A stretch of DNA of 64,000 nucleotides from Escherichia coli. Lineage in GTDB: Bacteria > Pseudomonadota > Gammaproteobacteria > Enterobacterales > Enterobacteriaceae. Shown one piece after another: positions 46,903 through 50,008 of this stretch; the stretch's first letter is position 1, and every line of letters starts with the position of its first letter. The translations under genes were made by a program, and so were the position numbers. The notes under the pieces are model-generated. The model worked only from the letters and a program-made list of their open reading frames with translations. It was not told the DNA's origin and made no database searches. The stretch lies in assembly GCF_045037415.1 (NCBI RefSeq), contig NZ_CP173438.1, one strand, 5' to 3'.

Positions 46903-46940
46903 GGTGGCTTAGCCAGGCTAAGCCACCGTTCTCGTTTTTT
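46903..46940. terminator. Bidirectional terminator between yigF and corA
   Basis: ggtggcttagcc-agg-ctaagccacc stem followed by gttctcgtttttt. Confidence 0.6.
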
Positions 46941-47889
46941 ACAGCCAGTTCTTCCGCTTAAAGTACAGATACGGTGCCAGGCCCGCGAGGATCATAAAGA
47001 TAATCGCGCCTGGGTAGCCGAAGCTCCACTTCAGTTCCGGCATAAACTCAAAGTTCATCCCGTAGCTGGAAGCGACCAGCGTCGGTGGCAGGAACACCAC
47101 GGATACCACCGAGAAGATTTTGATGATGCGGTTCTGCTCGATATTGATAAAGCCCATCGCCGCCTGCATCAGGAAGTTCACCTTCTGGAACAGGGATTCG
47201 TTATGCGGCAGCAGGGATTCGATATCTCGCAGGATTTCACGCGCCTGCTCCAGTTGCCCACCCGGTAAGCGTGCTTTACGTACCAGGAAGTTGAGCGCGC
47301 GCTGGGTATCCATCAGACACAGGCGAACTTTCCAGCCGATATCTTCCAGTTCCGCCAGCGTGGAGAGCGCCTCGTCGTACTCATCGCCCTGATGCCCTTC
47401 CATAATTACCCGGCTCAACTGCTCCAGGTCGCTGTAGATATTTTCAATTTCATCTGCCAACTGTTCGATTTTGGTTTCGAACAGATCCAGCAGCAGCTCG
47501 TAGGCGTTACCGTCCACCATTGACTGGCTACGGGCACGCATACGATACAGACGAAAAGCGGGCAGTTCACGCTCACGCAGAGTAAACAGACGACCATCAC
47601 GGATGGTAAATGCCACAGTGGAGTTACCGGCGTGATCTTCCGCATCTTCAAAGAAGAAGAAGGAGTGAATATGCAGGCCGTCATCGTCTTCAAAGAAACG
47701 TGCCGATGCTTCGATGTCTTCCAGTTCCGGGCGGGTTGCCAGGCTCTGGCCAAGTTCAGATTGTACGCGCAGTCGCTCGTCGTCGTCCGGTTCGACAAGA
47801 TCAATCCATACTGCATTTACAAGGGGTTGTGACTCTTCGACTTCCAGCCGGGTCAGTCGGTTATTTTCCAGTTGAAATGCGCTCAGCAT
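46939..47889 (-). CDS. corA: Magnesium/cobalt transport protein CorA
   Basis: Matches CorA from [15 protein letters not shown] (316 aa), including the GMN motif ([11 protein letters not shown]). Confidence 0.9.
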
Positions 47890-48258
47890 GACCGGGACTC
47901 CCAATGCTTAAAATATCGGACAGTTCGGTGGGCACACAGAAACAAATTGGGTTTCAGACCATTAAACAGCCTGACTCAGCGCGACGGGAAAAATTGAGGT
48001 CGCTGACAACCGCTAAGGCTATCAGCAAAAAGGGATAGCCTTAGGAGTTGATCCTGGATGACAGGATAGTGAGCCAGTATCTACTGGGTGTGTCCAAGGC
48101 GAATGTCCTCTTAGAGTGATCGTGCGCGCATGTTACGCCAGCAAAATTTTGCCGTCAACACGCAACAGAACACCACAGAACAATAGTTGAACTTCGCGCT
48201 TTTTGGTACTCGTCAAGGTCGCTAACAGGATAAAAAAATCCCACATTCAGGGCCTATA

Positions 48259-49023
48259 ATGGCGCATCGGCTATTCATTGGTAAAGGAATGATCACCTTG
48301 AATCTCAAACGGATTTTTCTCACCCTCACCTTACTTCCCTTGTTTGCTGTTGCCGCTGATGATTGCGCACCCTCAGATCCGACGCTGACCGTACAGGCGT
48401 ATACCGTTAATCCTCAAACAGAGCGGGTGAAAATGTACTGGCAAAAAGCCAATGGCGAAGCGTGGGGAACGTTACATGCGCTGCTGGCGGATATTAATAG
48501 TCAGGGTCAGGTGCAGATGGCGATGAACGGCGGCATCTATGATGAAAGCTATGCGCCGCTCGGTTTGTACATCGAAAACGGTCAGCAGAAGGTGGCGTTA
48601 AATCTCGCTTCAGGTGAAGGGAATTTCTTTATTCGCCCTGGCGGCGTGTTTTATGTCGCGGGAGATAAAGTCGGCATCGTTCGTCTGGATGCCTTTAAAA
48701 CCAGTAAAGAGATTCAGTTTGCGGTGCAGTCAGGGCCATTGTTGATGGAAAACGGTGTAATTAATCCGCGTATTCATCCCAACGTCGCCTCACGTAAAAT
48801 TCGTAACGGTGTTGGGATTAATAAACATGGGAACGCCGTGTTTTTGCTGAGCCAGCAGGCGACAAATTTTTATGATTTTGCCTGTTATGCCAAAGCGAAA
48901 CTGAACGTTGAGCAGCTGCTTTATCTTGATGGCACAATTTCACATATGTATATGAAAGGCGAGGCAATCCCGTGGCAACGCTATCCTTTTGTCACCATGA
49001 TTTCCGTCGAGCAGAAAGGTTAA
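48259..49023 (+). CDS. yigE: DUF2233-family secreted protein YigE
   Basis: 254 aa with N-terminal signal-like hydrophobic segment, matches YigE. Confidence 0.8.
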   Translation: MAHRLFIGKGMITLNLKRIFLTLTLLPLFAVAADDCAPSDPTLTVQAYTVNPQTERVKMYWQKANGEAWGTLHALLADINSQGQVQMAMNGGIYDESYAPLGLYIENGQQKVALNLASGEGNFFIRPGGVFYVAGDKVGIVRLDAFKTSKEIQFAVQSGPLLMENGVINPRIHPNVASRKIRNGVGINKHGNAVFLLSQQATNFYDFACYAKAKLNVEQLLYLDGTISHMYMKGEAIPWQRYPFVTMISVEQKG

Positions 49024-49105: not shown

Positions 49106-50008
49106 ATGAAAAAAACGCTCGCAACATTATTTTTATTAACCTGTCTGGGGTCATCATCCGCTTATGCGGATAACGCTTTGATTTTACAAACGGATTTTAG
49201 CCTGAAAGATGGTGCCGTCTCGGCGATGAAAGGGGTCGCATTCGGTGTTGACCATAATCTTAAAATCTTTGATTTAACACACGAAATTCCACCGTATAAC
49301 ATCTGGGAAGGCGCTTATCGCCTGTATCAGACTGCCAGTTACTGGCCGCAAGGTTCGGTGTTTGTTAGCGTGGTCGATCCAGGTGTTGGTACAGACCGTA
49401 AATCGGTAGTGCTGAAAACCAAAAACGGTCAGTACTTCGTTTCACCAGATAACGGTACGCTCACGTTGGTGGCGGAATCGCTGGGTATTGAGAGCGTCCG
49501 GCAAATCGATGAAAAAACCAACCGTCTGAAAGGTTCCGAAAAGTCATATACCTTCCATGGTCGTGATGTATATGCCTACACCGGTGCGCGTCTGGCTTCC
49601 GGGGCGATCACGTTCGAGCAGGTGGGGCCAGAGCTTCCTGCAAAAGTTGTCGAACTTTCTTATCAGAAAGCCAAAGCAACAAAAGGTGAAGTGAAGGGCA
49701 ATATCCCGATTCTCGATATTCAGTACGGCAACGTCTGGAGCAATATCAGCGACGAGTTGCTGAATCAGGCAGGAATCAAACTCAACGACACGTTGTGTGT
49801 GACCATTTCCGAAGGTTCCCAGCAAAAATACGCAGGGAAAATGCCGTATGTCGCAAGCTTCGGCGATGTGCCGGAAGGCCAGCCGATGGTGTATCTGAAC
49901 AGCTTATTGAATGTTTCCGTGGCGCTGAATATGGATAATTTCGCGCAGAAACATCAGGTTGCGTCTGGTGCTGACTGGAATATTGATGTGAAGAAGTGCG
50001 CTAAGTAA
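49106..50008 (+). CDS. DUF62 / SAM hydroxide adenosyltransferase-family protein with N-terminal signal peptide
   Basis: 300 aa; signal peptide MKKTLATLFLLTCLGSSSAYA; DUF62 N-terminal motif LILQTDFSLKDGAVSAMKGVAFGV. Confidence 0.65.
   Translation: MKKTLATLFLLTCLGSSSAYADNALILQTDFSLKDGAVSAMKGVAFGVDHNLKIFDLTHEIPPYNIWEGAYRLYQTASYWPQGSVFVSVVDPGVGTDRKSVVLKTKNGQYFVSPDNGTLTLVAESLGIESVRQIDEKTNRLKGSEKSYTFHGRDVYAYTGARLASGAITFEQVGPELPAKVVELSYQKAKATKGEVKGNIPILDIQYGNVWSNISDELLNQAGIKLNDTLCVTISEGSQQKYAGKMPYVASFGDVPEGQPMVYLNSLLNVSVALNMDNFAQKHQVASGADWNIDVKKCAK

Follow-up and report, generated by a model that had tools for sequence, protein, structure and literature searches.

The window analysed in this work is a stretch of 64,000 nucleotides from Escherichia coli (contig NZ_CP173438.1, assembly GCF_045037415.1), in which the divergent genes corA and yigE are separated by a gap of 369 bp (47890-48258). 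Of 5426 complete E. coli genomes, 5425 contain a match to the interval 47850-48300, the median number of places being one per genome, and many complete chromosomes of the species carry it with 100% identity. Gene borders were taken from the RefSeq annotation of an identical strain (Table 1), in which the corA ATG lies at 47889-47887 on the minus strand. The first-pass annotation, made from the letters alone, had described about 350 bp of non-coding DNA between the two genes. The gap is there, but it is larger than stated; its left border had been set at 47905, which is the end of the longest corA ORF, read from an upstream in-frame TTG, and not the annotated start. In turn, the description as non-coding does not hold for 48041-48097 (minus strand), where RefSeq annotates ysgD.

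The yigE side of the gap is poorly conserved. A perfect TATAAT hexamer (48255-48260) overlaps the annotated yigE start codon (48259), and an in-frame ATG found ten codons into the gene (48289-48291) precedes a signal-peptide-like sequence (MITLNLKRIF...). The annotation of the yigE start and promoter may be worth rechecking. Between yigE and uvrD, the plus strand hosts a gene of 300 aa (49106-50008), annotated as a member of the SAM hydrolase / SAM-dependent halogenase family, the product of which has a signal-peptide-like N-terminus. This gene is not known from E. coli K-12, and it may represent an accessory insertion.

Promoter and extent of the corA leader

A promoter scan of positions 47700-48500 revealed one sigma-70-like site only, TTGACG-17-TAACAT, at 48158-48130. 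Kriner and Groisman reportedly described the RNA leader of Salmonella corA in J Mol Biol in 2015. The leader has been characterised in Salmonella (PMC5314796, Kriner & Groisman 2016/17, NAR) and in E. coli (PMC11552253, Vézina Bédard et al. 2024, RNA Biol), where the corA transcript begins 232 nt 5' of the AUG (PMC11552253). The start site was located in the window by means of the primers listed in the supplement of the latter paper (GencorAfor/PBADCorArev junctions, oFM4, F-pLacUV5-corA, corA41-71 and corA68-99). The junctions of the Ptet, PBAD and lacUV5 constructs, and primers corA41-71 and corA68-99, all agree on position 48121, and +1 was assigned there since the names of the latter two primers fit solely this position. 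Transcript position N corresponds to window position 48122-N. The placement agrees with the occurrence of a promoter-like site just upstream, and with a boundary of conservation which coincides with the -35 hexamer. The long corA 5' UTR envisaged in the first-pass annotation is thus borne out by the published start and the promoter, though at 232 nt rather than about 350 nt, and transcription does not start close to the corA start codon, as would be expected if there were no long leader.

The discriminator GCGCGCAC, 8 nt in length, is conserved in at least 90% of sequences across genera. GC-rich discriminators of this kind resemble those of stringently controlled promoters, rrnB P1 as an example. 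A literature search for control of the corA promoter by ppGpp, or through its discriminator, found none, and a search for Term-seq data on corA found nothing usable. A perfect 12-bp palindrome (GCAAAATTTTGC, 48141-48152) resides in the promoter spacer, and is poorly conserved outside Escherichia.

Table 1. Features of the corA leader region. Transcript positions (nt) are counted from +1; stem coordinates were reconstructed from the 2016 and 2024 papers (PMC5314796, PMC11552253) and the primers.
Feature	Window coordinates	Strand	Description
corA CDS	46939-47889	minus	Mg2+/Co2+ channel; regulated gene; RefSeq annotation of identical strain
corA Shine-Dalgarno	47902-47898	minus	GGGAG; overlapped by termination zone
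Rho-dependent termination zone	47902..47912 (+/-1)	minus	published U211, G216-U220; overlaps corA Shine-Dalgarno
Major RNA polymerase pause motif	47933..47943	minus	G-10 ... U-1 G+1; +4 offset from PMC5314796
Stem-loop E	47954..47974	minus	nt 148-168 (Salmonella nt 152-172); UCAGGC-UGUUUAAUG-GUCUGA
Stem-loop D (ON)	47981..48003	minus	nt 119-141; GCGAC-13 nt-GUCGC
Rho-loading (rut) region, putative borders	47986..48037	minus	pyrimidine-rich UAUCCCUUUUU (nt 85-95) and GACCUCAAUUUUUCCC (nt 121-136), flanking stem B
Stem-loop B (OFF)	48002..48026	minus	nt 96-120; GCUGAUAGCC-UUAGC-GGUUGUCAGC
Stem-loop C (ON)	48007..48050	minus	nt 72-115; first-pass hairpin (core 48015-48042) plus extension
Stem-loop A (OFF)	48027..48112	minus	nt ~10-94; three-way junction enclosing corL; predicted folds
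Stem-loop A, base		minus	nt 22-28/78-84, plus Shine-Dalgarno pairing nt 10-15/89-94; predicted
Stem-loop A, arm hairpins	48087-48074; 48067-48051	minus	nt 35-48; nt 55-71; predicted
corL uORF (ysgD)	48041..48097	minus	nt 25-81; UUG start, 18 codons plus stop; 18-codon gene ysgD of the corA-yigE gap in RefSeq
corL Shine-Dalgarno	48107..48112	minus	AAGAGG; nt 10-15; invariant in alignment
Transcription start (+1, G)	48121	minus	deduced from published primers; 1-nt uncertainty
corA leader (5' upstream region)	47890..48121	minus	232 nt
Discriminator	48129-48122	minus	GCGCGCAC; GC-rich, between -10 and +1
corA promoter	48130..48158	minus	-35 TTGACG (48158-48153), 17-bp spacer, -10 TAACAT (48135-48130)
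yigE	from 48259	plus	RefSeq annotation of identical strain

Alternative folds and termination signals

The hairpin pointed out in the first-pass annotation occurs exactly once, at 48015-48042, and can be extended to 17-nt arms (48007-48023 and 48034-48050) with 88% complementarity. In the extended form it corresponds to stem-loop C, which as minus-strand RNA has a folding energy of -20.4 kcal/mol, compared to -7.2 ± 2.2 kcal/mol for shuffled sequences (z = -6.0). The whole leader folds at -76.4 kcal/mol, its shuffled versions at -58.9 ± 4.4 kcal/mol (z = -4.0). A chance palindrome was rejected, since only about 0.01 matches to the hairpin are expected. A REP/BIME-like repeat was rejected as well, given that the window holds a single match, and E. 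coli genomes a median of one. Hairpins are thus present in the gap, as had been claimed; yet, the one singled out is not a static structure, but one of two alternative folds that cannot coexist.

Stem C is the longest helix of the leader (16 pairs), and its 5' arm holds the corL stop codon (48043-48041). Stem-loops B and C both use nt 99-115, and are therefore mutually exclusive. The published mutagenic primers match the two structures: corAOFF1F, for the OFF state, rewrites exactly stem B, whereas corAON1F and corAON1F-reamp, for the ON state, turn stem C into a perfect helix (PMC11552253 supplement). Stem-loop B (-14.5 kcal/mol, z = -5.3) includes G-U pairs which work solely on the corA-sense strand, and the structure was assigned to this strand for that reason. 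Stem-loop A is predicted to fold at -23.2 kcal/mol (z = -2.2). Stem A sequesters the Shine-Dalgarno of the uORF, and its three-way junction encloses the uORF (PMC11552253). In the predicted co-transcriptional folds the corL Shine-Dalgarno pairs with a pyrimidine run at nt 89-94; we infer the exact pairs of stem-loop A, this pairing included, from such models. The stem at 47981-48003 (z = -3.6) plausibly equates, by position, to the published stem-loop D. As for stem-loop E (z = -4.4), the published Salmonella bases (YC 152-153, G155, G156, C157, U158, G166, G167, U168, C169 and C175-177) all match the E. coli sequence at a +4 offset.

Folds computed for the growing transcript switch from A to C, then to A+B, and eventually to C+D as nt 95, 116, 122 and 142 emerge. 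The A junction is seen at nt 85-100, C at nt 116, A+B at nt 122 (-40.0 kcal/mol), C+D at nt 142 (-44.3 kcal/mol). When B or C are forced within nt 1-175, the energies are -50.0 and -55.3 kcal/mol, respectively, hence about 5 kcal/mol apart. The alternation of the modelled folds and the energy gap between B and C would be the behaviour expected of a kinetic switch. Pairing of the stem C loop to the corL Shine-Dalgarno region is predicted at -7.7 kcal/mol, compared to a mean of -5.5 kcal/mol for shuffled loops; it reaches the 5% level in just 35 of 95 species, which lends it modest support.

The pyrimidine-rich flanks of stem B constitute the rut site (PMC11552253). Around stem B, C residues exceed G residues and YC dinucleotides are dense; the exact borders of the rut region in Table 1 are probable ones. 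Farther downstream, G 47943, U 47934 and G 47933 fit the consensus for RNA polymerase pausing, and are near-invariant in the alignment. The pause U (nt 188, 47934) is equivalent to Salmonella U192, and pausing at this site is predicted from the mapping. In vitro, termination stimulated by Rho and NusG occurs at U211 and G216-U220 (PMC11552253); to match these bases to the sequence, the numbering has to be moved by 1 nt relative to the +1 derived from the primers. A termination score of 3.3 has been obtained by ChIP-qPCR in the Rho R66S mutant (PMC11552253).

The corL reading frame and conservation among Enterobacteriaceae

The uORF translates as (M)DTPSRYWLTILSSRINS, followed by a stop. It shares with the published corL (PMC11552253) the UUG start, an internal CUG and the presence of a single proline, so that ysgD and corL are the same gene. 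The YsgD product has been detected independently, both by Ribo-RET along with epitope tagging and by PIRT-seq. A second open frame overlaps corL on the minus strand (48022-48120, transcript frame +2). It starts with AUC at nt 2, replaced by AUU in most other species, and runs for 32 codons to a UGA located past the corL stop. The frame is open at 32 codons in 70 of 82 species, though with so conserved a sequence this figure carries no information. It may correspond to the 'CDS177' of the PIRT-seq study (PMC12350097).

A search by degenerate DNA pattern, targeted at the N-terminus of CorA, identified 119 loci in Enterobacteriaceae, from which 95 non-redundant leaders were obtained; no Salmonella locus was retrieved by this pattern. 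Between the -35 hexamer (48158) and the corA ATG most positions are conserved at 90% or more; conservation collapses upstream of ~48160, the yigE-proximal ~100 bp being poorly conserved. The boundary suggests that the functional unit, made of promoter and leader, covers only ~270 of the 369 bp of the gap.

The UUG start of corL is kept in all of the 95 species, the length of 18 codons in 94. Of the peptide, the N-terminal MDTPS(R/K)(Y/C)WL is conserved; farther on, the C-terminal half varies freely at fixed length. Column entropies summed over codon positions 1, 2 and 3 amount to 4.9, 8.5 and 2.4 bits, respectively: variability is highest at position 2 and lowest at position 3. This pattern denotes conservation of the reading frame, not of the peptide. 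Conserved frame, length and RNA fit the notion that corL is a purely cis-acting uORF. A natural variant of the corA switch is found in Enterobacter sp. EA-1 (L076:5373-5614), where a deletion of 7 nt (AACUCCU) cuts into both the corL stop codon and the 5' arm of stem C, and corL is extended to 22 codons.

Both alternative folds are conserved. Pairing is kept across the 95 species in 100% of cases for B, 99.1% for C, 100% for D and 97% for E. A single A to G change, found in 36 species, keeps a G-U pair in B and a U-G pair in C. In stem B changes from U-A to U-G to C-G are observed, the U-A to C-G double change being found in one species, and two pairs covary in the arm hairpin of stem A at nt 55-71 (UA to AU or the reverse, in 18-21 sequences). 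The loop of stem D varies from ~10 to 22 nt, and the stem is kept. Covariation is thin as the leader is nearly invariant: double changes involve few pairs only, and come mostly from single clades. Nucleotides, those at the wobble positions of corL codons 1-9 among them, are more invariant than pairing alone would demand. Assemblies labelled Alistipes, Chryseobacterium and Paenibacillus (L036, L062 and L110) carry an Enterobacteriaceae-type corA with this leader, which in L110 is 95% identical to the window. These off-lineage leaders probably denote contamination, or mis-binning, of public genomes.

Two segments around the corL start, nt 14-22 (GGACAUUCG) and nt 26-34 (UGGACACAC), are complementary to nt 195-204 and nt 185-193, respectively (48088-48108 with 47918-47937 in the window), thus to the region of the pause site. 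Minimum-energy folding of the E. coli leader yields the resulting helices, and so does the consensus fold of the 95 species. In E. coli, moreover, nt 1-9 pair with nt 221-232, beside the corA start codon (48113-48121 with 47890-47901). In the alignment, 94.9% of the cells of the long-range helices are paired, and nearly all pairs are invariant. One double change only was found (8 sequences), in a clade where adjacent pairs are disrupted, and RNAalifold yields a covariation term of just -0.94. That the near-total invariance of the leader hides an undescribed long-range helix seems quite unlikely. If the helix existed, it would require a corL initiation region devoid of ribosomes, and could link the upstream fold to pausing >100 nt downstream. 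In Salmonella the upstream fold does alter RNA polymerase pausing >100 nt downstream, and pairing between upstream and downstream sequences was raised as a possibility by the authors, without naming the partners (PMC5314796).

Probable translation-coupled attenuation and its alternatives

The region flagged in the first-pass annotation corresponds, in all likelihood, to the corA promoter and to a 232-nt leader acting as a translation-coupled, Rho-dependent transcription attenuator. According to the model, transcription would start at ~48121 on the minus strand, and the nascent RNA, carrying corL, would adopt either of two folds: OFF, in which stem-loop A, enclosing corL, coexists with B, or ON, formed by C and D. 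Efficient translation of corL, favored by higher intracellular Mg2+, would place a ribosome over the 5' arm of C. With this arm occupied, B would form, and the pyrimidine-rich flanks, left single-stranded, would serve as Rho-loading site. Rho would then catch the paused RNA polymerase, and transcription would stop at ~nt 211-220, ~10-25 nt before the corA AUG. When corL is translated inefficiently, C and D would form, rut would be hidden, and the polymerase would read into corA. Stem-loop E would tune where Rho can act.

Published experiments show that Rho is involved. In E. coli the 5' region confers Mg2+ control independently of the promoter, and answers to intracellular, not external, Mg2+ (PMC11552253). 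[quoted passage not shown] Regulation by Mg2+ drops from 3.3-fold to 2.4-fold in the Rho R66S mutant, and 1.3-fold regulation is retained in the corL AGG mutant (PMC11552253). The partial loss observed in the two mutants implies that Rho and corL translation do not explain everything. The long, structured and regulated 5' UTR anticipated by the first-pass annotation is thus confirmed by a published leader, which confers Mg2+-responsive and partly Rho-dependent control.

A rival hypothesis is that the leader is a true Mg2+ riboswitch, in which direct binding of the ion to the RNA selects A+B over C+D, and corL plays a secondary role, or works as an amplifier. The published architecture has been called very similar to that of the Mg2+-sensing leader of mgtA, and the authors allow for direct effects of the ion on folding (PMC11552253). 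Regulation at the 1.3-fold level without the corL start codon, and an invariance beyond pairing needs, point in the same direction. However, changes in the corL start codon shift corA expression strongly, and in the predicted directions, and covariance models do not recognize the region. In the first-pass annotation no known riboswitch had been recognised, and an Rfam scan had been proposed. The scan agrees with that reading: no relevant family was found in 47600-48600 at E <= 10, and no family was assigned to the corA leader at gathering score in a scan of the whole window. In particular, Mg_sensor (RF01056) was matched neither at E <= 10 in 47600-48600 nor at gathering score in the window. 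No riboswitch aptamer model was matched at E <= 10 either, the only hits being three sub-threshold chance matches (mir-76, AaHKsRNA54 and tracrRNA). A riboswitch proper is, on balance, improbable. The sole match at gathering score in the whole window is the Erse small RNA (RF02757; 8687-8938, minus strand, 317 bits), which is unrelated to the corA leader. The corA leader is absent from Rfam, and covariance-model scans will keep missing it.

Slightly better placed, though still doubtful, is the idea that the hairpin region is mainly an entry site for RNase III, which would set the half-life of the corA mRNA by using stem C as substrate. The levels of corA mRNA have been reported in the literature to depend on RNase III. 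Lim et al. are said to have found, in 2012, that RNase III cleavage sites lie in the corA 5' UTR. Stem C, the sole helix of ~17 bp in the leader, would be the obvious candidate. Yet, the link to stem C is our own, substrates of RNase III are usually ~22 bp or longer, and cleavage would add a layer of control, not replace attenuation. A role for YsgD as a functional small protein, with the effect on corA being incidental, is very unlikely. The tagged protein is detectably translated, the gene is annotated as coding for a protein, and the N-terminal residues are conserved; but changes concentrated at codon positions 1 and 2, and rarest at position 3, are the opposite of what purifying selection on a peptide would leave. 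The freely changing C-terminal half, fixed in length, argues against the hypothesis as well, and the invariance of N-terminal codons also at wobble positions denotes a constraint at the RNA level. Of all alternatives the least credible is a classical Rho-independent attenuator, in which stem B and a following U-run would terminate transcription intrinsically. A consensus scan does flag B (12 pairs, loop of 5), followed by CCTCAATTTT, but two such sites were found vs 0.8 ± 1.0 expected. Moreover, the U-run begins 8 nt past the 10-bp stem B, is interrupted, and resides in the loop of stem D, and the stop observed in vitro is stimulated by Rho/NusG and falls at nt 211-220, ~90 nt downstream of the ~130 position required (PMC11552253). 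The displaced U-run and the published termination site led to reject this candidate.

The attenuator controlled by translation of corL remains the preferred reading. It is already known in detail, and its current understanding is unchanged; this analysis shows its anatomy and energetics, the mutual exclusivity of B and C, and how both folds, as well as the corL frame, are conserved across Enterobacteriaceae. In enteric bacteria CorA is the main Mg2+ channel, and its leader offers a textbook-grade case in which regulated Rho-dependent termination is coupled to the translation of a uORF. A reader working without tools had correctly flagged a real regulatory leader.

Locus and element described here are the same published for Salmonella and E. 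coli, with an 18-codon uORF starting with UUG, the A+B vs C+D alternative and stem E. The pause motif, and the termination zone just upstream of the AUG, are found here as in the published leader, and there is no substantive difference. E. coli numbers trail those of Salmonella by 4 nt at stem E, and by 6 nt at the start codon: in Salmonella the AUG includes U240, and the E. coli leader is 232 nt long.

The closest relative in terms of organization is the mgtA leader with its uORF mgtL. Both precede the gene of a Mg2+ transporter, and host a uORF inside a 5' three-way junction. In both, two exclusive folds expose or hide rut, and translation of the uORF is inverse to downstream expression. The similarity does not extend to detectable homology, in sequence or structure, of the corA leader to the Rfam model of the mgtA leader (RF01056). 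MgtL is proline-rich, whereas in corL proline occurs once and acidic codons are few. Unlike mgtA, the corA promoter is not under the control of PhoP, and the corA leader also responds to Mn2+. In E. coli, the involvement of Rho has been shown for corA, not for mgtA. Attenuators of the trp, his and pheA type share with the corA leader a short translated leader ORF, which picks the fold that sets read-through. They rely, however, on an intrinsic terminator, and sense charged tRNA through regulatory codons. In the corA leader no run of such codons is evident, and the stop is Rho-dependent and located >100 nt downstream of the switch.
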